The notes under the pieces were generated by a model. The model was given only the letters and a program-made list of their open reading frames with translations, was not told the DNA's origin and ran no database searches. Both the position numbers and the translations under genes were made by a program. From IMG/VR virus record IMGVR_UViG_3300008262_000013: a DNA stretch of 64,000 nt. One strand, 5' to 3'. Of this stretch, positions 3,946 to 17,499 are shown one piece after another. How positions within the stretch are numbered: the stretch's first letter is position 1; the number at the start of each line of letters is the position of its first letter. The DNA is from a virus. Taxonomy: Duplodnaviria; Caudoviricetes.

Positions 3946-4779
3946 ATGAGAGATTTGATTATAGGATGTTCCACCAACTACGATTGGTCCAAATTAAAAT
4001 ATTGGATCAACTCTATCAATAAATCCGGATTTCAGGGTGATAAGGTCATGATTCTTATGAATTGTGACAAAGATACAGTAAATAAAGTTGTTGAATCCGG
4101 ATTCAATGTTATAGGTTTCAAAAAAGACGAAGAAGGTAATTTAACATATTCCTCTAATATGCCAGTGCATACTGAAAGATTTTTGCACATATACAACTAT
4201 CTAAAAGATAAGGACTATCGATACGTAATTACTACTGATGTTAAAGATGTAGTCTTTCAAAAAAATCCTATTGAATTTTTGGAAAAGGAATGTGTCAATA
4301 AAAATTTACTTTTTGCTTCGGAAAGTATTCGATACAAAGATGAACCATGGGGTGATCAAAACTTAAAAGAAACTTTTGGTCCTTACATTTATGAACAGTT
4401 TAAAAATAATGAGATATTCAATGTGGGTGTTTTGGCTGGACATGGATATGCTATTCGTGATTTAGCACTAAACATTTTTGTTTCTTGTTTGAATCGTCCA
4501 ATTCCTATTTGTGACCAATCAACCTTCAACTTTATGATTAGTCAAAATCCCTACACTTCATTGAGTAAGTATACTCGTTCTGAAGAAGGCTGGGCAGCAC
4601 AGTTAGGTACAACAGGAGATCCATCAAAAGCATTACAATTTGATCCTGTTTTATTGGAAGCCAAACCTAAACTACAAGATGGAATTGTAACGACATCTGA
4701 AGGAAAACAATTTTATATTGTACACCAGTACGATAGAGTACCTGAAATGAAAAATACATTGGAGAAAAAATATGAGTGA
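3946..4779 (+). CDS. Glycosyltransferase-like protein
   Basis: ITTDVKDVVFQ DxxD-type motif, N-G-like NVGVLAG, terminal HQYDR; first gene of a sugar-modification cluster. Confidence 0.55.
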   Translation: MRDLIIGCSTNYDWSKLKYWINSINKSGFQGDKVMILMNCDKDTVNKVVESGFNVIGFKKDEEGNLTYSSNMPVHTERFLHIYNYLKDKDYRYVITTDVKDVVFQKNPIEFLEKECVNKNLLFASESIRYKDEPWGDQNLKETFGPYIYEQFKNNEIFNVGVLAGHGYAIRDLALNIFVSCLNRPIPICDQSTFNFMISQNPYTSLSKYTRSEEGWAAQLGTTGDPSKALQFDPVLLEAKPKLQDGIVTTSEGKQFYIVHQYDRVPEMKNTLEKKYE

Positions 4780-5344
4780 TATGTTAGTAATTAATACGAA
4801 TTCTGAAGCATTTAATATAACAGAAAAAAGAGAATTTAGGCCTTCTGGGTACCACTTTAAACAATTTATTTCTGTAATGGAAAAACCTGTTGTTTTAGAA
4901 ATTGGTTGTGATATCGGTGATACAGCATTTTCTTATCTAGAATGTAATCCTAATTTAACTTTATATTCTATTGACCCGTATGATGATTATGTTGATTGGA
5001 ATGGAAATCATTTGAATGAGAGACAGAAACTTTATCAACATGTGGTGGATAGATTTAAACCATTTGGTGATAGATTTAAACTTATACGAAGTAATTCTGA
5101 TGAAGCGGTTAGTCTTTTTGAAGATGAATTTTTTGATTTAATTTTTATAGATGGACTTCATACTTATGACCAACTAAGTAAAGACTGTGATAATTATTAT
5201 TCCAAACTAAAAACCGGATCAATATTTTCTGGACATGATTATACGGTAATTGAGGGAGTTAATAGGGCTGTTAATGAATTTTCTCAGAAAGTAAATAAAG
5301 AAGTTAATAGTGGTGAAAACGATACGTGGTTTTGGGTCAAATGA
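4772..5344 (+). CDS. Class I SAM-dependent methyltransferase (Methyltransf_24-like)
   Basis: VLEIGCDIG, IDP, DLIFIDGLHTY, GHDY. Confidence 0.85.
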   Translation: MSDMLVINTNSEAFNITEKREFRPSGYHFKQFISVMEKPVVLEIGCDIGDTAFSYLECNPNLTLYSIDPYDDYVDWNGNHLNERQKLYQHVVDRFKPFGDRFKLIRSNSDEAVSLFEDEFFDLIFIDGLHTYDQLSKDCDNYYSKLKTGSIFSGHDYTVIEGVNRAVNEFSQKVNKEVNSGENDTWFWVK

Positions 5345-6030
5345 AAAATTGCATAGTTTTTTCTGGACAATTCAGGACTTTTAAAGATACTGTTGAAAAC
5401 ATCAAAGAGTTTATTCGAATCAATGATTTAGATGTTTATTGTTTTTTATGGACTACAGACGCGGATGAAAAGCGATTTGTAGTCGATAATCTAAAACCTA
5501 TAAACTTTAGATTTGATGATTACTCCAATTATCAAGGTATGTTTGAAGAAATGGAACAAAGAATTCGCCATAATAACCCTAAACCTGCTCCCATCGATAA
5601 GGTTGCTGCAAACGCATCGATGAATTTTGCTAGAAAACAGGCGTATTCTTTAGTGAGAAATAATTATGATAACATCTTCTATTGTAGATATGACATTGAC
5701 ATATACGAACAGTTTACTTTAAAGGAACAAGTTGATTTTGTAGTAACACCATTAGAAGAATCGTATAATTTAATATCGGATATATTTGCAATTATACCTC
5801 AAAAATATGCTAAACATTATTTTTTGTATGATGAATATGAAAATATACACTCAACTAAATTTGAACCTAAGTTTGAAGAATGGTTGAGAAGTATTAAAAA
5901 ATACGGTGAAGAAAACATCAGGATTCATAGAGATGATAGATATTGTCCACATATGATGTTGTTACGCAATTTATGGAATAATAATGTACCCTTTGTTATA
6001 GAAAACCTTCCTGTGAGAATAAAAAGATGA
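5341..6030 (+). CDS. Putative glycosyltransferase-like protein, paralog of the next gene
   Basis: IVFSGQFRT ... YCRYDI pattern; ATG at 5341 preferred. Confidence 0.45.
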   Translation: MKNCIVFSGQFRTFKDTVENIKEFIRINDLDVYCFLWTTDADEKRFVVDNLKPINFRFDDYSNYQGMFEEMEQRIRHNNPKPAPIDKVAANASMNFARKQAYSLVRNNYDNIFYCRYDIDIYEQFTLKEQVDFVVTPLEESYNLISDIFAIIPQKYAKHYFLYDEYENIHSTKFEPKFEEWLRSIKKYGEENIRIHRDDRYCPHMMLLRNLWNNNVPFVIENLPVRIKR

Positions 6031-6752
6031 AAATAGCTTTATGTTTTTCTGGACAAGCCAGATCGTTTGAAAAAGGTTACGAATATTATAAAAAAAATCT
6101 CTTAGATAATTATGATGTAGATGTTTACATTCATAGCTGGAAATTTGATGGTGAAGAAAAGTTTTTGGATCTTTACAAACCAAAATCTTTTAAATTTAGT
6201 GATCCTTACTCAAATACTGAACAAGGATTTAAGTTGGATGATTACTATACGCATACACCAAATAGAGAAAAATATCCACCAAGATTTACATATTCGATGT
6301 TTGATTCTATGTATAGGTGTTTAGAATTATTGGTTCACGAATCATTAAACAATCGGACTGATTATAATTGGGTAATAAGAACTCGAACTGATTATGCTTT
6401 GAATGTTTCGATTCCTTTTGAAACACTAGATTCAAACAAACTTTATATACCAAATTGTAGAATGGTACCAGAAAGAGATTTTGGAAATGACCAGTTCGCA
6501 TTTTCATCATATAATAATATGAAAAAATATATGTCAACTTTCATGAACATAAATCACTACTATGATGATTTGAAAACATTATTCATAGGTGAAGATTTGA
6601 TGAAAGCCAATTTACATGAACATAATTTATTTGGTGAAAATTTGGTTTATGTTAATATGAATAATCCTTTTCCACCAGGATCCCACAACGGAACTTGGCA
6701 CTCATTGATTCGAGATGATTACGAAGAATGGACAAACAATTCAAAAAAATAA
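6027..6752 (+). CDS. Putative glycosyltransferase-like protein
   Basis: KIALCFSGQARS, DVYIHSW, IRTRTD, NDQFAF. Confidence 0.45.
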   Translation: MKIALCFSGQARSFEKGYEYYKKNLLDNYDVDVYIHSWKFDGEEKFLDLYKPKSFKFSDPYSNTEQGFKLDDYYTHTPNREKYPPRFTYSMFDSMYRCLELLVHESLNNRTDYNWVIRTRTDYALNVSIPFETLDSNKLYIPNCRMVPERDFGNDQFAFSSYNNMKKYMSTFMNINHYYDDLKTLFIGEDLMKANLHEHNLFGENLVYVNMNNPFPPGSHNGTWHSLIRDDYEEWTNNSKK

Positions 6753-7486
6753 TCAAAGAATTAAAAGGACATTCTGGAAATAAAATAACTTTGGTTGAAA
6801 ACGATAATATTTTATACGTTGAAAAAACTGGAGATATAGAAAGAAATTTTGAAAGAATGAAGTTTCTTTATGAAAACAACTATAATGTACCATTAATTTT
6901 TGAAAGTGATGGAAAAACATTCATGAACATGGAGTATATCCATGGTCTTGATATGAAAGAATATTTAAAAACACATAATATAAAGTTTCTTTTTAATTTT
7001 ATATTTGATATATTAAAACAGTTTTCTGAAAATAGTGAAGTTGTAGATTACACTGAAACATATTATAAAAAGTTATCTTTTCTTGATGATGTGAATGATT
7101 TACCTTTCTCTAAAGAAGAATTTATATATTCTTTACCTAAAAAAATACCCAGATCACATTATCATGGAGATTTTACTTTAGAAAATTTAATTTATACAGA
7201 AAACAAATTCGTTATGATTGATCCAGTAACAATAGAATATGATTCTTATATATTTGATATAGCTAAACTTAGACAAGATTTAGAGTGTAAATGGTTTCTT
7301 AGAGAGACAGACTTAAGATTAGATGTAAAATTAAATGAGTTACAAGAGAGAATACTGAATTCTTTTCCCTTGGCTAAAGATGATAATTTATTAATATTGA
7401 TGTTATTAAGAGTTTATAGGCACACTAAGAGTGGTGATAATAATCATCAGTTTATTTTGAAGGCGATTGAAAAATTATGGAAATAA
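6728..7486 (+). CDS. APH/choline-kinase-like phosphotransferase
   Basis: HGDFTLEN catalytic loop, MIDP, DIAKL. Confidence 0.75.
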   Translation: MDKQFKKIIKELKGHSGNKITLVENDNILYVEKTGDIERNFERMKFLYENNYNVPLIFESDGKTFMNMEYIHGLDMKEYLKTHNIKFLFNFIFDILKQFSENSEVVDYTETYYKKLSFLDDVNDLPFSKEEFIYSLPKKIPRSHYHGDFTLENLIYTENKFVMIDPVTIEYDSYIFDIAKLRQDLECKWFLRETDLRLDVKLNELQERILNSFPLAKDDNLLILMLLRVYRHTKSGDNNHQFILKAIEKLWK

Positions 7487-8520
7487 TTGTACCTGCAGCA
7501 GGACTTTCAACCAGATTTCCCAATACTAAACCCAAATATCTATTATATGATTACGGTCATAAAATGATGATACAGAGAGCTCTGGATCCTTGGTTAAAAA
7601 CCGAACATAATATAACGGTTGGAGTTTTAAAACAACATGATGAAAAATTTAACTCTGTAGATTTTTTGAAGTATGAATTTGGTGATAGAATTAATGTGGT
7701 TATTTTAGAAGAAATGACCGAAGGTCCGGCTGACACTGTTTATAAAATCATAAAAAAATCTAATATTGATTTAACACAACAATTATTAGTTAAAGATTGT
7801 GACAGTTTTTTTCATATGGATAAAGTTGAAACCGAAAACTTCGTATGCACTTCAAATATAGCTGATCATGAGGTATTGAAAAAATTATCATCAAAAAGTT
7901 TTGTTATAAAAAATGAACAAGGTATAATTACTAGTATTATAGAAAAAAAAGTTGTATCTGATACCTTTTGTGTTGGTGGTTACGGATTTAAAAATGTTCA
8001 ATCATATTGTGACACATTTGAACAATTAAAAAAATCTCAAACGAATAGAGAAATTTTTGTTTCAGATGTAATATCCAAACAACTGGAAGATGGTGAAATT
8101 TTCAGTTCAGTTTCGGTTAAAAATTACACGGATGTAGGAACGCAAGAAGATTGGCATGAATACAATAACAAACCTGTTATATTTTGTGATATAGACGGCA
8201 CACTAATAGTATCACAAAGTAGAGTTGGACAAAATAACTTTTATAGTTCTTATATTGCTTTAGAAAAAACTGTTAATAAACTATTAGATTTACAGAAAAA
8301 TGGAGCTCAATTTATATTTGTAACTTCTAGACCTAAAAATTTAGAAAGACAAACTCATAATTTACTCACATCTCTAGGATTTAAAAATTATGAATTAATT
8401 ATAGGATTACAAAATTCTACTAGAATATTAATAAATGATTTTAATAATGCGAATCCACACCCTAGAGCAATATCAATTAATGTAGAACGAGACAAGGACC
8501 AAGCATGGATGTATCTTTAA
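7477..8520 (+). CDS. Sugar-phosphate nucleotidyltransferase fused to a HAD phosphatase
   Basis: N-terminal IIVPAAGLSTRF...KP, GPADT, KDCD; C-terminal FCDIDGTL, VTSR, INDF. Confidence 0.8.
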   Translation: MEIIVPAAGLSTRFPNTKPKYLLYDYGHKMMIQRALDPWLKTEHNITVGVLKQHDEKFNSVDFLKYEFGDRINVVILEEMTEGPADTVYKIIKKSNIDLTQQLLVKDCDSFFHMDKVETENFVCTSNIADHEVLKKLSSKSFVIKNEQGIITSIIEKKVVSDTFCVGGYGFKNVQSYCDTFEQLKKSQTNREIFVSDVISKQLEDGEIFSSVSVKNYTDVGTQEDWHEYNNKPVIFCDIDGTLIVSQSRVGQNNFYSSYIALEKTVNKLLDLQKNGAQFIFVTSRPKNLERQTHNLLTSLGFKNYELIIGLQNSTRILINDFNNANPHPRAISINVERDKDQAWMYL

Positions 8521-9221
8521 TTCCTAATAAAATTTTATTTATTGTTACTTCAGCTTTAAATTCAAAAGTTGGAGTTGTGAATAGTACTCAAAGATTACAA
8601 CAGACAGTAGAAACACTAATTAATTTAAAACAAAAAGTGCCTGAAGCCACTATACTTCTTGTAGATGGTTCGCCTGATCCAGTTCCCGAAGAAACGAAAA
8701 AAATAATCAGTCAACATTGTCAATGTATTTGGTTTGGAGAACATCCAGAAATAAATTCAATGTCATCAATAGGTAGACAAAGTGAGGCTGAACTTTTACT
8801 ATTATTTAATACCTTTATTTTATTTAAACGTGTTCCTGAATTTATGAGTTTTTTGCATGGAGTCAAAAGAATTTTCAAATTTTCAGCGAGAAGTTTTTTA
8901 GAAGATGATTTCGACATTAATGAGTATGATAATCTTTTTGGTAAGTATGTGTTTAAGAAATCTTTGCCATCTTGGATGCCACCCGAAAGAAAAAAGAATA
9001 TAACTGATCATCTCTACATTACAAGAATGTATTCCTTTTGTCCTTCTTTATTGGATAATTACTTACAACAAATTCAACCAATGTTAAACAACGTGATGCA
9101 ACATAGAATCGATTTCGAACATGCTCATTATCTTTGTCTAGATAAAACACATATAGTTGAATTTGATAGAATAAAATGTTCTGGCATCGTATCGGTTTCG
9201 GGACAAATGGAAAGATATTAA
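8505..9221 (+). CDS. Hypothetical protein, possible glycosyltransferase
   Basis: Inside the sugar cluster; LLVDGS and FKFSAR motifs only. Confidence 0.35.
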   Translation: MDVSLIPNKILFIVTSALNSKVGVVNSTQRLQQTVETLINLKQKVPEATILLVDGSPDPVPEETKKIISQHCQCIWFGEHPEINSMSSIGRQSEAELLLLFNTFILFKRVPEFMSFLHGVKRIFKFSARSFLEDDFDINEYDNLFGKYVFKKSLPSWMPPERKKNITDHLYITRMYSFCPSLLDNYLQQIQPMLNNVMQHRIDFEHAHYLCLDKTHIVEFDRIKCSGIVSVSGQMERY

Positions 9222-9222
9222 T

Positions 9223-9999
9223 ATGATTAATGAATTTGAATATGAAAAATTACAAAATGAGTTTAAAAATGGACAACCATTTTCTCATTGTGTTATAGAT
9301 AATTTTTTTGATGAAGAAACGGCTTTAAAATTGTCAGAAGAATTTCCCGACTATAATGATAACGTTTGGTCTATCTATGATAATCCAATAGAAAATAAAA
9401 GAACTAATTCAAACTGGAATTTGTTTCCAAAAGAAACATATCAATTCTTTTCTTTAATGAATGGTGATGAGTTTATAGAAAAAGTAAAAAAAATTACAGG
9501 TATTGATGATTTGGCTGCCGATTATGGATTACACGGCGGCGGGTGGCACATGCATGGTCGCAACGGAAAATTGAATTTACATAAAGATTATTCTATTCAT
9601 CCAAAACTTGAAATGGAAAGAAGAATTAATATTATCATTTACATGACACCAATTTGGCAAGAATCTTGGGGTGGAGGGTTGGAATTATGGTCAAATGATG
9701 AGGAAAAAAATTTACCAAAAGAATGTATTAAAAAAATTGATAATAAATTTAACCGTGCTGTAATTTTCGACACTACGCAGAATTCGTGGCATGGCCTTCC
9801 TGATGCGATTAATTGTCCTCCAGGAATGTACAGAAAATCTTTAGCAATATACTATGTCTCTCCTCCAAGAAAAGAAGCTGAAGTACATGACCGAGCACTT
9901 TTTGCACCTTACAAAGATCAGGTTAGTGACCCTAAAATTTTAGAATTGATTAAAAAAAGATCAAGTTCTAAAACCTCTGGTGAAGTTTATAGGACATAA
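9223..9999 (+). CDS. 2OG-Fe(II) oxygenase
   Basis: LNLHKDY (HxD), GGGLELW, SWHG, YRKS. Confidence 0.85.
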   Translation: MINEFEYEKLQNEFKNGQPFSHCVIDNFFDEETALKLSEEFPDYNDNVWSIYDNPIENKRTNSNWNLFPKETYQFFSLMNGDEFIEKVKKITGIDDLAADYGLHGGGWHMHGRNGKLNLHKDYSIHPKLEMERRINIIIYMTPIWQESWGGGLELWSNDEEKNLPKECIKKIDNKFNRAVIFDTTQNSWHGLPDAINCPPGMYRKSLAIYYVSPPRKEAEVHDRALFAPYKDQVSDPKILELIKKRSSSKTSGEVYRT

Positions 10000-10019: not shown

Positions 10020-10027
10020 TATAAATA
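10020..10027 (+). promoter_or_regulatory. T4-type late promoter TATAAATA
   Basis: Exact consensus in the intergenic gap, 40 nt upstream of the 907-aa ORF. Confidence 0.75.
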
Positions 10028-10067: not shown

Positions 10068-12791
10068 ATGAAATTTAAAGACTTTCTATTAGAACAGAAA
10101 GAAAAACACGCTGTCATGGCTTTCGGCCGTATGAATCCGATTACGAACGGCCATGAAAAAGTAGTCAAGGAAGTCAAAAAAATTGCTAAGCAATTTGACG
10201 CATCCCACCACATCGTACTGTCACATTCTCAAGATCCGAAGAAAAATCCTCTTACAGTACAGCAAAAAATGAAACACGCTAAGCGTGCATTTCCCGATAC
10301 AAAATTTGTAGCAGCATCCAGTGAATCTCCCACATTTTTCGAATATGCCGAAAAGTTATACAAACAAGGTGTAACTCATTTTCACATGGTTGCTGGTTCT
10401 GATCGAGCTCTCGAATATTTAAAATTACTCAAAAAATATAATGGTACACATAAGGGTGCTAGATTTAATTTTAAATACATGGGTGTAGAATCTGCCGGTG
10501 AACGTGACCCAGATGCAGAAGGCGCAGAGGGTATCTCCGCATCAAAGATGCGTGATGCTGCCGCAAAGGGAGATTTCAAAACTTTTAAAAAAGGCGCACC
10601 ATCAAAAATGTCAGTTGATCAGGTAAAAGACATGTATAATGATGTGCGTAAAGGTATGAACATTAAAGAAAGCATCAATGAAGAATTCGAAGAACTTCTC
10701 GTTGAAGGTGTACATGATCAAAGTATTTTCAAAGCAGTATTTTTAGCAGGCGGTCCAGGTTCAGGTAAAGATTATGTGTTAAGTAATACATTAGATGGCC
10801 ATGGATTAACAGAAATTAATTCTGATAAAGCTTTAGAGTTCTTAATGGATAAAAAAGGACTTGATAAGAGAATGCCTGAGAATGAAACTGAAGCGAGAGA
10901 TATCGTTCGAGGCAAAGCTAAGAGTGTAACTGAATTACGTCAACGTTTAGCATTACAGGGAAGAAACGGTTTAATCATCAATGGTACAGGCGATGATCCT
11001 AAAAAGGTTGCAAAAATTAAATCAAAATTAGAAGAATTGGGTTACGACACCTCAATGATTCTTGTCAATACAAATGATGAAGTGTCTGCACAAAGAAACA
11101 TTGAACGTGGTCAAAGAGGTGGTAGAACTGTACCAGAAACAATTCGTAAAGAAAAATGGGACAATGTTCAAAACGCACGTACAGAATACGCAAAGATATT
11201 TTCTGATCGTTATATGGAGTTTGACAACTCGGAAGATTTGCGACAAGCGCCACCTGATGTGGTTAAAGAAAAGAAAATGGAAATGTTGCAACTCTTTAAG
11301 AATGTTAAAGAGTTCGTTGCACAACCTCCACAATCTCCTGCTGCTCAAGAATGGGTAGCAAATGAACTTCAACAAAAAGATACATTAAAGCCGGACACAA
11401 AAGGTGCAGAAAAGATTCCACCAAGTGGATCTAGTGCTGCTGATGAAGCTAGAAAGATGGGATTACAATATTATGGATTTGGCCGTTACGGTAAAAATGG
11501 TAAAACTACACACCGTTCAGTGCATGACAAATTAGTACAAGTAACAAACAAAGAACCAGAACAACCAAAATTACCAACACCAGGTTCTTCACCAGTTGAT
11601 AATAAATCTAAAGTCAAAAAAGAATCTATTGATGACGAATTTGAAAATCTTATTTCAGAAGATTTGCGTAAGTGGTTTAGTAAAACTGATCCAGAAGGTG
11701 GTTGGAAAAGAATTAATAGTAAAGGTGAAGCAATTGGTCCTTGCGCTCGTGAACCTGGTGAACCAAAACCAAAATGTATGTCAAACGAAAAACGTGCTTC
11801 ATTGTCCAAGAAAGAACGTGCATCTGCTGTCGCAGCAAAACGTAAACATGATCCTGTTGCAGACAGAGGTGGCAAAGGTGGTAAACCTGTGAATGTTTCT
11901 AATTTTGGAAAAGGAAAACTATCTGAAGCTGTAACAGTTTCGGTTACTGGTGATACAGTTGATGAAGTAAAAGACTTCTTTACTACATTCAATAATAATG
12001 TAACCCATGAAGAATCATATGCTTTGTCTGATTCAAAGACTGATGCTATAACATTAGGTAAATTTATGCAACCCTTTGGTGAGAAAATGGAAAATACCAT
12101 GATCACTAATGAGATGATGCAAGATATGCTTGATGAAAGTCAACATAATTTATTGAAAGATAAACAAGGTAGAGTTAGAGTTTTCATGTTGCGCTCTGTT
12201 GCAGCAAAAGAAGCACATACGAAACAAGGTATCGTTTTGAAACATAAAAATGGTTATGTAATTAAACTAAAAGAGGAGATTGAAAATGTTGAAGTTTATA
12301 AAGGAACTATTCGGAATTGGATTGAAGAATCCAAACAAGCACGGGTTAGAGGGAGCATCGACAGCTCCAAACCAGGACTTCTCACAGAGAGTAGAACAAT
12401 ACTCAGCACCAGTGGAAGCACCAGTTCAGGAACAAACAGTTCAAGAGAAACCAAAGACGCAAAAGAAGGCACCAGCATCCAAGAAGCCATCGCCAAAGAA
12501 ACAAGAAACAAAATCACCCTCTCAGAAATCAGGCAGAGGCAGAAAACCTGGTCAGAAGAACAAATCAACGAAATAGATCGTGGTATTGAACCTGGTCTAT
12601 CAATGGCTGGTGCAGGTGAAAGTATTGGTAGAGATATGGGAGAAAAAATTAAAAAAAGATCCCATAAAGTTACTACAGTAGAAATGACTGGTGATGAAAC
12701 AACAGCTTCTATTGGTGATCAAAAAGAAGGTGAGTTAAAAAGAAAAGGTATTAATTTAACGACATTCAAAGCAAAAAGGCCGATAGGATGA
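10068..12791 (+). CDS. Multidomain protein: HxGH nucleotidyltransferase + P-loop kinase + small modules; putative packaged polyprotein
   Basis: GRMNPITNGH, VAGSDR, ISASKMR; LAGGPGSGK, INGTG, RNIER; Glu-rich linkers; starts MKFKDFLLEQ. Confidence 0.75.
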   Translation: MKFKDFLLEQKEKHAVMAFGRMNPITNGHEKVVKEVKKIAKQFDASHHIVLSHSQDPKKNPLTVQQKMKHAKRAFPDTKFVAASSESPTFFEYAEKLYKQGVTHFHMVAGSDRALEYLKLLKKYNGTHKGARFNFKYMGVESAGERDPDAEGAEGISASKMRDAAAKGDFKTFKKGAPSKMSVDQVKDMYNDVRKGMNIKESINEEFEELLVEGVHDQSIFKAVFLAGGPGSGKDYVLSNTLDGHGLTEINSDKALEFLMDKKGLDKRMPENETEARDIVRGKAKSVTELRQRLALQGRNGLIINGTGDDPKKVAKIKSKLEELGYDTSMILVNTNDEVSAQRNIERGQRGGRTVPETIRKEKWDNVQNARTEYAKIFSDRYMEFDNSEDLRQAPPDVVKEKKMEMLQLFKNVKEFVAQPPQSPAAQEWVANELQQKDTLKPDTKGAEKIPPSGSSAADEARKMGLQYYGFGRYGKNGKTTHRSVHDKLVQVTNKEPEQPKLPTPGSSPVDNKSKVKKESIDDEFENLISEDLRKWFSKTDPEGGWKRINSKGEAIGPCAREPGEPKPKCMSNEKRASLSKKERASAVAAKRKHDPVADRGGKGGKPVNVSNFGKGKLSEAVTVSVTGDTVDEVKDFFTTFNNNVTHEESYALSDSKTDAITLGKFMQPFGEKMENTMITNEMMQDMLDESQHNLLKDKQGRVRVFMLRSVAAKEAHTKQGIVLKHKNGYVIKLKEEIENVEVYKGTIRNWIEESKQARVRGSIDSSKPGLLTESRTILSTSGSTSSGTNSSRETKDAKEGTSIQEAIAKETRNKITLSEIRQRQKTWSEEQINEIDRGIEPGLSMAGAGESIGRDMGEKIKKRSHKVTTVEMTGDETTASIGDQKEGELKRKGINLTTFKAKRPIG
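12286..12576 (+). CDS. Nested same-strand ORF (96 aa, MLKFIKELFGIG..., Lys/Pro-rich tail)
   Basis: GAGGAG 7 nt before the ATG; stop-free in a different frame inside the 907-aa gene. Confidence 0.55.
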   Translation: MLKFIKELFGIGLKNPNKHGLEGASTAPNQDFSQRVEQYSAPVEAPVQEQTVQEKPKTQKKAPASKKPSPKKQETKSPSQKSGRGRKPGQKNKSTK

Positions 12792-13372
12792 AAACATTTA
12801 AAGAATTAATGTTAGAGAGATGTTGGCCAGGTCATAAACCTGTACCTGGTAAAAAACCTTATTCACCAGGTTCTTGTGTAAAAGAAGAACAACTTGATGA
12901 AATGCCTGGTGCTAATATGGACACTAGAGCAGTACATAAGCATCTTAGAAAATCTGGTTGGGAATTAACTAGAACATCCGGTGGTCACGATGTGTTTACT
13001 CATCCAGAAGCTAAGCATCATATTCCTGTTCCTCGTCACAAGCAATTAAAGGCACCATTAGTTCGTGGTATTCTAAAAGCTGCCAAAATAAATGAAGATT
13101 TGGAAGAATCTGCCGCATGGCAACGTAAAGAAGGAAAAAATCCTGAAGGTGGATTAAATCGTAAAGGTATTGCTTCTTATCGCCGTGAAAATCCTGGTTC
13201 AAAATTGTCAATGGCTGTGACTACACCACCATCAAAATTAAAACCAGGAAGTAAAGCAGCGAATCGCCGTAAATCATTTTGCGCTCGTATGGGTGGTATG
13301 CCAGGTCCTATGAAGGATGAAAAAGGTCGTCCAACAAGAAAAGCATTATCTTTGAGAAAGTGGAATTGCTAA
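12788..13372 (+). CDS. Three-module protein containing a HicA-like RNase domain
   Basis: Starts MKTFKELMLE; CWPG..C module; HicA-like LRKSGWELTRTSGGHDVFTH..IPVPRH; C-terminal AWQRKEGK..SFCARM..KWNC module. Confidence 0.75.
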   Translation: MKTFKELMLERCWPGHKPVPGKKPYSPGSCVKEEQLDEMPGANMDTRAVHKHLRKSGWELTRTSGGHDVFTHPEAKHHIPVPRHKQLKAPLVRGILKAAKINEDLEESAAWQRKEGKNPEGGLNRKGIASYRRENPGSKLSMAVTTPPSKLKPGSKAANRRKSFCARMGGMPGPMKDEKGRPTRKALSLRKWNC

Positions 13373-14683
13373 GTGGCACAATTTAGAACCGACTTACACA
13401 AGATAGATTCAGGACAAGTATTCACTCGTTATGAAGTGAATATGATGTCTGATCGTCTTACACCATCGGGCACAATGACAGATGCGTTTGGTCGCCTTCG
13501 TCTATCACAACCATTTACTCTTTTTGATAGTTCGCACCGTTTTACTGACAACGGACTGTGGTCAACATCAAATACAGAAGGAAATAGTTCATATGCTTTT
13601 GTAAACAATCAAAGTATGATTGCGATGACTGTGGGAACTACAGCAAATGCCGAAGTCATTCGTGAGACAACAAGAGTGTTTTCATATCAACCAGGTAAGT
13701 CTTTGTTGATGATGTCGTCATTTGCTATGGAGACACCTAAAGCAAATGTTCGTCAGAGAGTTGGTTATTATGGTGCTGAGAATGGTATCTATCTTGAGAA
13801 TGATGGAACAGCAAACTATTTTGTGCTGAGAAGTAATACATCAGGGACAATTACAGAAACAAAAGTTACACAAACAGATTGGAATATAGACAAGTTTGTC
13901 GGCACGGGTTATTCATCTCAAAGTGGTGGTGCTGAACATACTAACGGCATCGATGTAAGTAAAACTAATATTCTTTGGATGGATATTGAATGGTTGGGTG
14001 TTGGTGATGTTCGTTGTGGATTTGTGGTTGATGGTAAAATGGTTCCTGCTCATATATTTCATAATGATAATAAGAATTTGGTTCCTTATATGACAACGGC
14101 ATCTTTACCGTTGCGTTATGAAATCAAGAACACAGGTATTACAACAAGTAATTCTACATTAAAACAGATTTGTTCAACCGTTATATCTGAAGGTGGATAT
14201 GAGTTGCTTGGATCGCAGCAAGCCGTAGGCACACCAGTTACTAGCCCAATTGATTTGGCCGTTGCTGGAACATATTATAATCTCATTTCTTTGAGATTGA
14301 AATCGGATAGATTAGATGCGATTGCCATTATTACTGCACTATCTTTATTAGCATTAACTAACAACTCATATTATAACTGGCAACTCAGGGCGGGTGGTAC
14401 AACAACAGGTGGAACATGGGTAAGTGCAGGAGATAATTCGGCTGTTGAATATAAATTAGATGCCGCAACAATTTCAGGTGGAAGAATATTAGCATCGGGC
14501 TTTACAACTTCTACTACACAAAGTTCTATACCAGTGGATATTCTTAGAGAAGCACTATTCAAATTTCAATTAGAAAGAAATGGATTGACCAATACACCCT
14601 TCGAACTCACATTATGTGTGGCAGCATCAGTTAATGGTTCTGATATATACGCATCGATGGATTGGGAAGAAGTCACAAGATAA
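13373..14683 (+). CDS. Putative virion structural protein
   Basis: DAFGRLR start and beta-rich Thr/Ser/Gly composition like T4-like structural proteins; GTG start. Confidence 0.5.
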   Translation: MAQFRTDLHKIDSGQVFTRYEVNMMSDRLTPSGTMTDAFGRLRLSQPFTLFDSSHRFTDNGLWSTSNTEGNSSYAFVNNQSMIAMTVGTTANAEVIRETTRVFSYQPGKSLLMMSSFAMETPKANVRQRVGYYGAENGIYLENDGTANYFVLRSNTSGTITETKVTQTDWNIDKFVGTGYSSQSGGAEHTNGIDVSKTNILWMDIEWLGVGDVRCGFVVDGKMVPAHIFHNDNKNLVPYMTTASLPLRYEIKNTGITTSNSTLKQICSTVISEGGYELLGSQQAVGTPVTSPIDLAVAGTYYNLISLRLKSDRLDAIAIITALSLLALTNNSYYNWQLRAGGTTTGGTWVSAGDNSAVEYKLDAATISGGRILASGFTTSTTQSSIPVDILREALFKFQLERNGLTNTPFELTLCVAASVNGSDIYASMDWEEVTR

Positions 14684-14708
14684 CAAAAACTAAATCAGGA
14701 GAACTAAA

Positions 14709-16031
14709 ATGTTTCAAGACAAACTAACAAAAGAAATTGCTGCTGCAGCAGCACAAATTAAAACAGAACCAACTAAAAACGTTGTAAATGGAAACAGCGT
14801 TGAAGGTGCTGTTGTTTCAATTATGGCCAATGAAGAACTTAAAGGTAATCAACACAAGATTGATGCCAATAAGAATGGTAAAGTTGATGCACACGACTTT
14901 AAACTTCTTCGTAGTAAGAAAAAAGTAGAAGAAGGTGTTAAGGGTGCTGGTGTAGGTGCTGCTCTAGGTTCTGTTGCTGGTGGACCAGTCGGTGCTGCAA
15001 TTGGTGGTGCTTTAGGACATGTGGCTGGTGAAGTTCTTTCCAGTGCTAAAAACAAAGCAAAAGCTATGGGTCGTATTGCTGTAGGTCCTTCAATGGCTGA
15101 TAGCAAATTAAAAAGAGAAGATGTTGAACAAATCGATGAAGTTGGTGATACATCAGCAGGTAGAAAAATGATTAGTTCATATGTCAACAAAGCAATTGGT
15201 GACAAATCAAAAGACCGTTCAAAAGGTTTACGTAAAGCAACATCACGCCTCTACAAAGACAATTACTATGGTAAAAAGAATGAAGAAGTTGAAATGAACG
15301 AAGAAGATGCTTATAACAAAGACCGTTATGCTGTTAAAGATGGTAAAGCAAAAAAAGATAATCCTACACACATGGGTTCACCTAACTACAAAGATCAACC
15401 ACATCATGTTTGGGCAACAAGTGCTGAACATGCATTGAAAAAATCTATGAAGAAAGAAGAAGTTGAACAAATGGACGAAGCTTTTCCAACTGTAGCAGAT
15501 GCTAAAAAACGTATGGCTGCCGGTCAAAGTTCTTTCGAGAAAAAGAAAATTTCTACTGGCACAGTTTACTCACGTAAGTACAAAGCAGAACCAGATGATG
15601 CAGATGATATGCCAAAGAAAAAGGCAAAGACTATGAAAGAGATGTTGGACATTTACAGACAACATGGCGCAGAATCTTTGGTAGAAAATTTAATGATCGA
15701 AGAACCAACGAACGATGAGTATAAAAAAGAAGCTGAAATTGCTCAAGCAAAATCTGAAGGTAAAATTCGCAATGACAAACAGATTGCTAAAGCAGCATCA
15801 CAAGGTGTAAAAATGGAAGAAGTTGAACTTGAAATGTATGATGCTGATGAAATCAATGGTGTTCAAATCGATACAATTGATGAGCGTTCAATGACTGATG
15901 CTGAAATGGACAAACGTGAGAAAATCGTAAAGTCAATGAAAAAAGGCATTCAAGGTTTCAAAGATCGTTATGGTGATGATGCTAAGTCGGTAATGTATGC
16001 TACTGCAACCAAAAACGCGATGAAGGACTAA
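14709..16031 (+). CDS. Modular charged protein, putative internal head polyprotein
   Basis: Short basic modules separated by EDVEQIDE, EEVEMNEE, EEVEQMDE, EEVELE; glycine-zipper segment; AGGAGA Shine-Dalgarno. Confidence 0.6.
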   Translation: MFQDKLTKEIAAAAAQIKTEPTKNVVNGNSVEGAVVSIMANEELKGNQHKIDANKNGKVDAHDFKLLRSKKKVEEGVKGAGVGAALGSVAGGPVGAAIGGALGHVAGEVLSSAKNKAKAMGRIAVGPSMADSKLKREDVEQIDEVGDTSAGRKMISSYVNKAIGDKSKDRSKGLRKATSRLYKDNYYGKKNEEVEMNEEDAYNKDRYAVKDGKAKKDNPTHMGSPNYKDQPHHVWATSAEHALKKSMKKEEVEQMDEAFPTVADAKKRMAAGQSSFEKKKISTGTVYSRKYKAEPDDADDMPKKKAKTMKEMLDIYRQHGAESLVENLMIEEPTNDEYKKEAEIAQAKSEGKIRNDKQIAKAASQGVKMEEVELEMYDADEINGVQIDTIDERSMTDAEMDKREKIVKSMKKGIQGFKDRYGDDAKSVMYATATKNAMKD

Positions 16032-16033
16032 CT

Positions 16034-17491
16034 ATGAAAAAGTTTTCGGATGTTTTTAAATCCATTCGATTTGCTAAATTGGACCCTCAACATGATAAAC
16101 CTGAAATTGGTGGATCAAAAGATGATGAGGAACATTATACTGTTGGCACAAAAGAATGGGATCAACAAGTAAAACATGTAAAGAAAAGAGCTATGCAAGA
16201 AGAAAAGAAAGACAAGTATGATGAGGGTGAATATGACCGTGAAGGTGATATGGCTAAATCCGACTTGCGTTCTATCATTGCGAATGCTAAAAGATTGCAC
16301 GATATGATTGAAGATGCTGATAATCTTCCTGAGTGGGTGCAATCTAAAATTACTGTAGCAGAAGATTATATTTCAACCGTTGCGAATTACATGACAGCAG
16401 AAATGAATGAATCTGTCGCAGATACACATTCTAAATTGCGTAAAAAATCTGGTTTGCCACATCCCGATTACTATAAAGAATTAGGCAAATCTTATGATAT
16501 TGAAGATGATAAAGAAAGACTTTCAAAGCAATCTGAAATCAAAAAGAAATACAAAGTCGAATCTTATGTTCCTTCACCACATGCCAAACCTGTTCCTAAG
16601 AAACCAAAAGGTGAATATGAACGTAAGGTTGACAAGTATTTGAAAAAGAAATACAACAAAGAAGAAGTGGAAATAGACGAAGCAGCAAAGTGGCGTTCAA
16701 CTTCAGTAGCAAAAAAAGTTACTGATCCTGATGATGAAAGCAGTCGTTCTTATGACTATCATCACGAAAATCCCAGATCAACAGGCATGAAGCAAGCAAC
16801 TTCAGATAAGCCATATTCATCGGGCAGTTTGATGACAAGACTTAAAGCACAAGTCGCCTCACAGGGTGCCAGAAAAGGTATGGTTACCAAACAACACGCC
16901 GCAAGTCTAAAAGATAGAATCAAGTCTGCTATGCGTAAAGAAGAAGTTGAACTTTCTGAAGGTCGCCCATCACAGCGCCATCCATTAGAGGGTCATGAAT
17001 ATCACAAGAAAACGGATGCTGAATTGATTCACATTGCTAAAGATGCACATGAAGCAGCAGAAGCAATGAAAAGTCACAACACAACCGCAGAAAACAAATA
17101 CCGTGACCAAGCAAATGATTCTGCGACAGTGAGATATTTCCGTCAAAAGAGTGGTATGCCTAACTGGTATAAAAAGAAGTACGGACACGTTAAGGAAGAA
17201 ATGGAACAGTTAGAAGAAAAGAATGTTCCAACTTCACCTGAAAAGTGGGCTCAGGCCAAAGCACAAGCAAAAGCTAAGTTTGATGTATATCCATCAGCCT
17301 ACGCAAATGGTTGGGCTGCAAAGAAATATAAAGAAATGGGTGGTGGTTGGAAATCAGTTAGCGAAGAAACTATTTCAGAATCTCGCAAATCTGAAATTAT
17401 CAAAAAGTTAGTTAAGAAAAAAACTAATCCAGACGATAAATTTGAACCAAATCCAGTAATGGTAAAAACCAGAGATGACAGAGATCATTAA
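16034..17491 (+). CDS. Modular charged protein, putative internal head polyprotein
   Basis: Starts MKKFSDVF; linkers KEEVEIDE, KEEVELSE, KEEMEQLEE; modules LPEWVQSKIT and YPSAYANGW. Confidence 0.6.
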   Translation: MKKFSDVFKSIRFAKLDPQHDKPEIGGSKDDEEHYTVGTKEWDQQVKHVKKRAMQEEKKDKYDEGEYDREGDMAKSDLRSIIANAKRLHDMIEDADNLPEWVQSKITVAEDYISTVANYMTAEMNESVADTHSKLRKKSGLPHPDYYKELGKSYDIEDDKERLSKQSEIKKKYKVESYVPSPHAKPVPKKPKGEYERKVDKYLKKKYNKEEVEIDEAAKWRSTSVAKKVTDPDDESSRSYDYHHENPRSTGMKQATSDKPYSSGSLMTRLKAQVASQGARKGMVTKQHAASLKDRIKSAMRKEEVELSEGRPSQRHPLEGHEYHKKTDAELIHIAKDAHEAAEAMKSHNTTAENKYRDQANDSATVRYFRQKSGMPNWYKKKYGHVKEEMEQLEEKNVPTSPEKWAQAKAQAKAKFDVYPSAYANGWAAKKYKEMGGGWKSVSEETISESRKSEIIKKLVKKKTNPDDKFEPNPVMVKTRDDRDH

Positions 17492-17499
17492 CATAAATA
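17492..17499 (+). promoter_or_regulatory. Late promoter variant CATAAATA
   Basis: One mismatch to TATAAATA, intergenic, upstream of a structural gene. Confidence 0.55.

Follow-up and report, generated by a model that had tools for sequence, protein, structure and literature searches.

A late gene block encodes chains of unrelated modules

The 64,000-nucleotide stretch of viral DNA analyzed here (IMG/VR virus record IMGVR_UViG_3300008262_000013; hereafter the window) comes from a T4-like marine myovirus whose nearest cultured relatives are HTVC008M (Pelagibacter), Melnitz (Methylophilales) and T4-like cyanophages, all of them Kyanoviridae. Four open reading frames (ORFs) in the window, which we treat as candidate precursors of internal head proteins, encode strings of short modules joined by acidic linkers: A (10068-12791, 907 amino acids (aa)), B (12788-13372, 194 aa), D (14709-16031, 440 aa) and E (16034-17491, 485 aa). 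All coordinates are those of the window, and all features lie on the + strand unless stated otherwise. An initial annotation made from the sequence alone had singled out the same four ORFs and described their modules as unrelated to one another, and both points hold: the ORFs are confirmed, and Pfam and PDB comparisons assign the modules to families as disparate as CTP_transf_like, Zeta_toxin/NMP-kinase-like, HicA, DUF6321 and a glycine zipper, among others.

In this block each gene starts within the end of the preceding one or close behind it, which suggests a single late transcription unit, A-B-C-D-E; the ATG of B, for example, overlaps the stop codon of A (ATGA). The perfect late promoter reported ahead of the block is present as the T4-type motif TATAAATA (10020-10027), 40 nucleotides (nt) upstream of the ORF A ATG. 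A second late-promoter-like motif, ATAAATA (17493-17499), sits just past the ORF E stop, 31 nt before the next ATG (17530), and closes the A-E unit, so that late-promoter motifs are found on both sides of the block. Such motifs are scarce in the window, with only 3 copies of TATAAATA where 8 are expected and a strong depletion of the ATAAATA core (7 copies against 31 +/- 5.6 expected). The seven core copies lie at 10021, 17493, 26420 and 27923 on the + strand and at 8536, 48609 and 57146 on the - strand, and the + strand copies are intergenic, three of the four just outside ORF ends. Such depletion would be expected if the motif were kept for late promoters, and the motif ahead of ORF A predicts for the block the late expression that characterizes T4-type internal proteins. 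ORF C (13373-14683), which lies inside the block and would be co-transcribed with it, is a virion structural protein (phrog_1645, E = 5.8e-132) and not a polyprotein.

Module composition of ORFs A, B, D and E

ORF A consists of a leader, a nucleotidyltransferase, a linker, a P-loop kinase and four more modules. The leader, MKFKDFLLE (10068-10094), is a 9-residue variant of a capsid-targeting sequence and ends L-L-E. Module A1 (10095-10664) is a HIGH-type nucleotidyltransferase, the 'cytidylyltransferase' of cyanophages (phrog_3041, E = 1.5e-60; Pfam CTP_transf_like, 26.7 bits with a cut-off of 21), for which a sequence search of the PDB returned no match. It is followed by the linker KESINEEFEELLVE (10665-10706), which is of an S-I-N-E-E-F-E type, ends L-V-E and has counterparts that precede module A4 in relatives. 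Module A2 (10707-11372) is a P-loop kinase of Zeta_toxin/NMP-kinase-like character (Pfam Zeta_toxin, 50.2 bits, cut-off 22.3) that contains the P-loop GGPGSGK and matches UMP/CMP and adenylate kinases in the PDB at about E = 2e-5 (UMP/CMP kinase 1qf9, E = 2.3e-5). A second long linker, KESIDDEFENLISE (11619-11660), ends I-S-E and leads into module A4 (DLRKWF.., 11661-11927), a basic module with an isoelectric point (pI) of about 10 that ends L-S-E at residues 618-620 and is also found as standalone proteins of 84-104 aa. The C-terminal modules A5/A6 (11928-12788) have no assigned function. Among relatives the nucleotidyltransferase-kinase pair is constant and the C-terminal modules after it, A5/A6 included, come and go.

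ORF B begins with the 10-residue leader MKTFKELMLE (12788-12817), which carries Phe4, Leu7, Met8 and Glu10. Module B1 follows, and then the linker KEEQLDE (12881-12901, ending L-D-E), a HicA-like RNase module (12902-13090; Pfam HicA_toxin (PF07927) at B residues 47-101, 46.4 bits, cut-off 27), the linker NEDLEE (13091-13108, ending L-E-E) and a very basic DUF6321 module with a net charge of +17 (13109-13369; Pfam, 82.6 bits). The neighbors of the HicA module are linkers and DUF6321, and no HicB-type partner stands beside it, although no search aimed at HicB was made. A look-up in the ESM Atlas returned clusters of 544-aa viral proteins of which 95% carry HicA, so an embedded HicA appears to be common in this class of polyprotein.

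In ORF D an EF-hand-like module and a glycine zipper are accompanied by four more cassettes. The EF-hand assignment belongs to module D2, which has a weak, sub-threshold match to an EF-hand/dockerin loop when the single module is searched against Pfam at a relaxed threshold. The linkers of D are REDVEQIDE (15114-15140), NEEVEMNEE (15279-15305), KEEVEQMDE (15453-15479) and MEEVELE (15813-15833); the last is the weakest of the linkers named in the annotation and is kept only in the closest homologue. A further junction, I-D-E (15876-15884), precedes module D7.

ORF E is a string of small helical domains with the linkers KEEVEIDE (16658-16681), KEEVELSE (16937-16960) and KEEMEQLEE (17192-17218). 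The last of these precedes module E6 (17219-17380), which has a weak, sub-threshold match to DUF5872, ends I-S-E at residues 447-449 and is predicted with a local distance difference test score (pLDDT) of 94-96. AlphaFold, supplied with an alignment of fragments, gives separate, confidently predicted small helical domains in E at residues 71-130, 321-375 and 401-440 (pLDDT 87-97), with a predicted template modeling score of 0.33 for the chain, domains that have no fixed mutual arrangement, and linkers modeled as helices at lower confidence. As leads only, the ESM Atlas look-up also placed E6 and A4 in standalone viral proteins of 60-104 aa and within proteins of many sizes.

A hydrophobic-x-Glu motif marks the module junctions

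We compared A, B, D and E with the ORFs called at 157 related loci, which were collected in two IMG/VR scans using D and E as queries. All eleven linkers quoted in the initial annotation occur at the expected residues, and their DNA is alike as it had claimed, with five linkers reading [AAA/AAT/ATG]GAAGAAGT[T/G]GAA. The entries of that list are thus correct but the list is incomplete: further junctions exist in A at residues 618-620 (LSE/A, where a slash marks the module border), in D at 390-392 (IDE/R) and in E at 62-64, 124-126 and 447-449, and A and B also have leaders. Three types of linker can be distinguished, namely KEE[VIM]E[QLY][LI][DE]E, S[IV][ND]EEFE.[LFY][ILF].E (the 'twin' linkers of A) and internal copies of the leader, such as ..LSFKSFINE/RCWPG and ..QSFKSFISE/GRPSQ. 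The linkers are acidic (-2 to -5), whereas nearly all module cores are basic, with pI values of 8.4-11.3 and net charges of up to +17.

The plain [LI]xE motif is no denser in A, B, D and E than in other ORFs of the window, and we therefore dropped its density as a signal; the departure from chance lies in where the sites fall and in an extended acidic motif. Defined as E[ED][VIML]E.{0,2}[LIMV].E, this extended pattern is present in three copies each in D and E, against means of 0.005-0.008 and a maximum of 1 in composition-preserving shuffles, and is absent from the other 28 window ORFs examined. At the relatives' loci it reaches 2.32 occurrences per 1000 aa in 352 polyprotein-like ORFs compared with 0.048 in 4848 other ORFs, a difference of about 48-fold.

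To describe the junctions themselves we took every distinct 8-residue stretch upstream of a module start as one context. Across five unrelated modules, Glu occupies P1 and L, I, V, M or F occupies P3 in 126 of 135 distinct contexts, and for E6 all 32 distinct contexts end [LI]-x-E. The pattern at P3 and P1 is held in linkers of differing DNA (for example ..FISE, ..MIKE and ..ELKE). At the level of the motif, the junctions therefore fit the gp21-type cleavage site, (hydrophobic)-x-Glu, that had been proposed for them.

Leaders resemble the T4 capsid-targeting sequence

The T4 internal proteins IPII and IPIII start MKTYQEFIAE/A and IPI starts MKTFKEF.., or MKTFKEFTSTTTPVSTITE/A in full (read from NC_000866). 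ORF B starts MKTFKELMLE/RCW and ORF A starts MKFKDFLLE/Q. The first ten residues of T4 IPIII are enough for packaging, with positions 4 and 7 serving targeting and positions 8 and 10 processing (PMC9026906). The B leader agrees with the T4 leader at all four of these positions, and that of A is a 9-residue variant.

Leaders of this type are widespread at the related loci, where 166 distinct leader-bearing proteins of 53-1074 aa were found, 165 on the coding strand and 1 on the opposite strand, which serves as an internal control. Some are single-module genes (leader plus A4, 84 aa; leader plus DUF6321, 95-106 aa; leader plus B1, 82 aa), and others are chains of two, three and many modules. Cyanophage homologues of A1 also have leaders (MRFRQFIIE in S-SZBM1_140 and MKKFSAFLSE in S-RIM4). 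Because the same modules follow either a leader or a linker, as in MKSFKQFVNE/DLRKWF and ..FISE/DLRKWF, the two are interchangeable as the left border of a module, which is what would be expected if both were removed at the same Glu.

In one relative (G001), the portal and gp21 genes flank an ORF of 271 aa that occupies the place of gp67/gp68 in T4, starts MKSLNEFKNLVE.. and contains ..SEEVQLEE/A (locus L165, 2303-3118), so this type of leader appears to be used at a bona fide prohead-core gene position as well. The N-terminus of ORF D is of another kind. D and its homologues begin M(S)IF.DK.LK.VAEAAAKI.. (window 14709-14770), which is similar to how the gp22 scaffold proteins of relatives start, MASNKLMEAAAEIL.. 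and MGKFNLTEAAKDIL.. (L165, 4620-4700; L167, 4490-4570). This sequence may be a second kind of core-association signal, used by a protein that has no T4-type leader.

A gp21-type protease and virion proteins in relatives

Each of the four long relatives (133-214 kb) encodes one Peptidase_S77 (gp21) protein above the Pfam cut-off, in the usual order portal-protease-scaffold-capsid and with its own gp22 beside gp21. Their gp23 keeps QQLTE/A or QQLNE/T at the site that reads SFLTE/A in T4, where it ends the 65-residue gp23 propeptide (PMC5694885). Given this conserved maturation site, the specificity of the relatives' protease is very probably the T4-like L-x-E.

The design seen in the window recurs in cultured cyanophages. 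In S-RIM8, gp147 (592 aa, several modules) and gp146 (MKSYNEFISE..) lie directly upstream of the ORF C homologue. S-SZBM1 shows this design in _191 (MKSFKSFLSE..), _192 (MKTFKQYITE.., with DUF6321 at its end) and _194 (L173, 27311-30375). The homologue of ORF C adjoins a polyprotein in both phages, and S-SZBM1_190, a 'virion structural protein' in the position equivalent to ORF C, is present in the S-SZBM1 virion proteome. The A1 homologue S-SZBM1_140 and its neighbor _139 were detected by liquid chromatography-mass spectrometry in CsCl-purified virions (PMC9146016), and the cytidylyltransferase ORF154 of S-CREM2 was likewise detected in purified virions together with several hypothetical proteins (PMC10665884). 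According to the authors of the latter study, kinases and cytidyltransferases are often seen in cyanophage virion proteomes, although contamination is possible (PMC10665884).

A role within the prohead could also be a transient one. The proteins might be expendable core or scaffold components like gp22, gp67 and gp68, shredded and expelled before DNA packaging and so aids to assembly rather than cargo. D and E are Lys/Glu-rich and helical, as such a role would suggest, the D N-terminus is like that of gp22 in relatives, and the leader-bearing 271-aa ORF of G001 occupies the place of gp67/gp68. However, A, B, D and E contain only about 1 [LI]xE site per 100 aa (0.9-1.65), placed at module borders, compared with about 15 sites in the 269 aa of T4 gp22, and the products released would be basic folded domains and enzymes. 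The relatives moreover have their own gp22 in the canonical place, and A1 homologues persist in mature virions. We consider this explanation quite improbable for the four proteins, and for D and E, where it was considered specifically, we rejected a scaffold-like reading on grounds of site density, charge and the separate gp22.

Modules are shuffled at the junctions

The initial annotation predicted that modules would be shuffled among relatives, and named a fixed architecture of the homologues as the finding that would speak against its proposal. The 349 distinct ORFs of relatives show 108 module orders, and their architecture is thus not fixed; examples are B1-A4-E6-DUF6321, A4-E6-B1-DUF6321, HicA-E2-E3-E5-E6-E7 and E6-E5-D2. 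Internal ends of high-scoring segment pairs (HSPs) fall within 8 residues of a named linker more often than expected in A (29% vs 7%), B (82% vs 27%) and E (35% vs 16%). D shows no such excess at its four named linkers (17% vs 24% expected); the widely shared modules of this protein end at other junctions, such as the I-D-E at residues 390-392, where 30 HSPs start. Comparison of D with its full-length homologues shows insertions and deletions of whole cassettes exactly between conserved linkers. HSP starts also gather at residues 521-540 of A, around KESIDDEFENLISE (39 starts), and at the KEEMEQLEE linker before E6 (61 starts).

The same borders are visible in the DNA. Ends of blastn HSPs lie within 15 nt of a junction in 44% of cases against 12% expected, and the strongest breakpoint clusters are at 17190-17204 (before E6, the strongest of all), 17355-17369, 12885-12899 and 11655-11669 (at KESIDDEFENLISE). 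A further cluster at 15870-15884 coincides with the junction before D7. Within the linkers, GTT is the codon for 79% of Val residues, a share that falls to 48% in the rest of these proteins, and 152 of the 359 linker cores read GAAGAAGTTGAA. It is plausible from these patterns that the linker DNA acts as a recombination joint, as had been suggested. The breakpoint and GTT results are equally well explained by common descent of the linkers, or their travel with the modules, combined with selection for in-frame junctions.

Taken by themselves, these DNA patterns would also fit proteins that are made late, stay in the cytoplasm and are never packaged, the linker being a DNA exchange joint for cassette swapping by microhomology and its likeness to a protease site a coincidence. 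The break in DNA similarity at junctions and the bias toward GTT and GAAGAAGTTGAA are what this account would lead one to expect, and most such proteins are absent from the one proteome that was checked in detail. It leaves unexplained the T4-like leaders, the conservation of P3 and P1 across linkers of differing DNA, the position of the genes among virion genes and the detection of A1 homologues in virions, and we regard it as improbable.

A proposed model of packaging and processing

The anatomy of these genes is solid: they have leaders, a common junction motif, shuffled modules, a late operon and, in their lineage, a gp21-type protease. What the proteins do is approached through their resemblance to T4. 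As the leaders and linkers resemble the T4 head-loading tag and protease site, the proteins are probably packed and cut, and the reading we favor, with some confidence, is that A, B, D and E are precursors of T4-like internal head proteins that are packed as single chains, cut into many products and delivered to the host. We infer packaging, cleavage, host delivery and a role as effectors from sequence features and from relatives. In such a pathway the T4-type leader, clear on A and B, would dock the chain on the prohead scaffolding core. A gp21-type protease would then cut after the Glu of (L/I/V/M/F)-x-E, the motif that ends the leader and every conserved linker, and one chain would give rise to several small, mostly basic proteins along with the nucleotidyltransferase, the P-loop kinase and the HicA RNase. 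These products would be retained in the head alongside the DNA and would probably accompany it into the host. Since the same short junction flanks every module, phages could acquire, drop or rearrange modules and still keep targeting and release intact. Outside the enzyme modules, the term effector is a guess, because most modules are small basic proteins of no assigned function.

Several observations weigh against this pathway. ORF D has no T4-like leader, and the leader of E, MKKFSDVFKS, matches the T4 pattern only at its start and lacks Glu at position 10. The protease of the window phage itself is predicted from its relatives. The Glu before each module could simply belong to the module family, and a single cut would leave the acidic linker on the upstream product. 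The small, leader-bearing S-SZBM1_191 and _192 and the polyprotein-like _194 are absent from the published virion list, on which _139, _140, _190 and _195 do appear (PMC9146016); tryptic mass spectrometry, however, detects small Lys/Arg-rich proteins poorly and easily misses them. Shared phylogeny makes the HSP and context counts non-independent, and ratios therefore carry more weight here than p-values. Finally, [LI]xE sites inside the modules are not depleted overall, with 417 observed and 355 expected (ratio 1.18). By module, the ratio of observed to expected sites is 0.31 in A1 and 0.52 in DUF6321, D2 is also depleted, and E2 (2.4) and the kinase (1.4) are enriched. Cut specificity would consequently need accessibility or a longer linker context; in T4, too, some L-x-E sites stay uncut.

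The internal sites also bear on whether the chains are cut at all. They might instead be packaged multidomain proteins that stay intact, with a leader that targets them and linkers that serve as helical spacers or core-binding motifs, much as in polyvalent proteins, a concept that permits intact multidomain effectors (PMC5512222). The prediction of the linkers as helical rather than disordered agrees with such a role, as does the lack of LxE depletion within modules. A spacer would have no need of a strict P1 Glu and hydrophobic P3 across five unrelated modules, however, and intact chains are hard to square with an N-terminal leader, removed in T4, that swaps with an internal linker, or with the existence of the same modules as single small genes. 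We judge the uncut alternative unlikely, and retain processed internal head proteins as the preferred interpretation.

A broader proposal builds on that interpretation and is possible but doubtful. In marine T4-like phages (Kyanoviridae and relatives) the junction may define a combinatorial cassette system, acting at once as a capsid address or core-binding signal, a cut site and a preferred point of DNA exchange. A small gene inserted between two such junctions would automatically be turned into cargo that is packaged, released and injected. This would extend to a normally self-toxic enzyme such as an orphan HicA RNase or a zeta-like kinase, held inert in the precursor until cleavage, and the shuffling would yield the 108 or more arsenals found among close relatives.

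T4-like cyanophages and pelagiphages rank with the most abundant viruses of the sea, and very little has been reported on the cargo that they bring into the cell besides DNA. If the reading as packaged and processed precursors is true, a large and fast-evolving set of 'hypothetical proteins' becomes readable as virion-delivered cargo, and the conserved cyanophage 'cytidylyltransferase', which has so far been found in virions without explanation, is accounted for. The T4 paradigm of capsid targeting and gp21 processing would be extended beyond genes for single proteins to cover polyproteins. Packaged proteins and their mature ends could then be predicted from the sequence by a simple rule, and the modular layout would offer a natural way to load T4-type capsids with several foreign proteins.

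Related genes outside the block

The gene neighbors in the window include baseplate-type giant proteins, ribonucleotide reductase, thymidylate synthase and primase. Upstream of the block and outside the polyprotein unit is a run of overlapping genes (3946-9999), the last two of which include a putative nucleotidyltransferase/HAD-like protein of 347 aa and a 2OG-Fe(II) oxygenase (the oxygenase alone was scanned). Farther upstream (1022-2254), a 410-aa DUF6267 protein (Pfam, E = 1.5e-112) starts MKFSEYLTE/SKKEGANLHLEHLED, a 9-residue leader as in ORF A. Its homologues HTVC008M gp127 and S-SZBM1_141 have no leader, and the conserved ..HLEHLEDD stands at their very start. In both phages the gene is found upstream of that for the cytidylyltransferase, adjacent to it in S-SZBM1 and separated from it by gp128 and gp129 in HTVC008M. 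From its leader, the DUF6267 protein may be a fifth capsid-addressed protein of the window.

DUF6321 also occurs in five podoviruses (S-RIP2, S-TIP37, HTVC131P, HTVC103P and HTVC033P) as a bare ORF of 72-101 aa that lacks both leader and acidic linker. Head genes (for capsid and for scaffold or head assembly) surround it in four of these phages, and several of the phages also have tiny basic ORFs next to it. Since podovirus DUF6321 is bare, leader and linker seem to be add-ons seen only in the T4-like lineage; T7-like phages are not known to have a gp21-type protease. The other tiny ORFs that adjoin podovirus DUF6321 are extremely basic (for example ..GLYANIHAKRKR.., 44-51 aa; L170, L171, L175, L176 and L177), and such ORFs lie among head genes in four of the five phages. 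S-RIP2 has a 171-aa ORF that opens with a GLYANIHAKRKR-type motif, and a related module, ..PGLWANIRA, follows a KEEVEELEE linker in T4-like relatives. The tiny basic podovirus ORFs may be unrecognized head-internal DNA-binding proteins that are shared across phage families.

Comparison with known systems

We found no description of this polyprotein architecture in the literature (open-access papers and preprints). The closest likeness is to the T4 internal proteins IPI, IPII, IPIII and Alt, which share with the window proteins the leader of about 10 residues (MKT[FY].E[FL]..E), the (L/I)-x-Glu motif, late genes, small basic products and a Peptidase_S77 in the lineage. They differ in that a T4 gene encodes one leader and one protein, whereas here as many as about 7 unrelated modules share a chain, the cut motif recurs in the internal linkers and 108 module orders exist; the system described here is known from sequence. 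T4 gp22, gp67 and gp68 are likewise prohead-loaded, helical and charged and are cut by gp21 at many (L/I)-x-E sites (PMC5694885), but their sites are dense and the peptides are expelled, in contrast to the sparse sites at domain borders, basic domains and enzymes of the window proteins.

In the giant phages phiKZ, 201phi2-1 and SPN3US, ejection or inner-body proteins are cut after Glu by a gp21-related protease, and several sites per precursor are possible (PMC9026906, PMC5694885). The extra sites there lie in long N-terminal propeptides that are discarded, whereas those described here separate product-like modules, and the phiKZ motif is S/A/G-x-E rather than hydrophobic-x-E.

Polyvalent proteins, as described by Iyer et al. 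2017, combine disparate domains in one chain and are predicted to be virion-borne, delivered with the DNA and proteolytically processed (PMC5512222), the abstract predicting processing by zincin-like metallopeptidases. The window proteins are alike in uniting disparate activities per chain, nucleotidyltransferase and kinase in A and HicA and DUF6321 in B. They differ in their uniform short linker, T4 leader and gp21-type serine protease. According to Iyer et al., the T4-like ADP-ribosyltransferases that they discuss are not genuine polyvalent proteins, and HicA, zeta toxin, cyanophages and linkers are not mentioned in their paper (PMC5512222). All Pfam matches of A, B, D and E fall outside the polyvalent domain network and include no peptidase. 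With no matching domains or phage group, we rejected membership in this class and regard it as an analogue only.

The polyproteins of RNA viruses offer a more distant parallel. There, as proposed here, one translation product is split by a viral protease at short conserved junctions, but RNA viruses encode replication and structural machinery in a fixed order, whereas the modules of the marine T4-like phages are accessory, optional and freely reordered.

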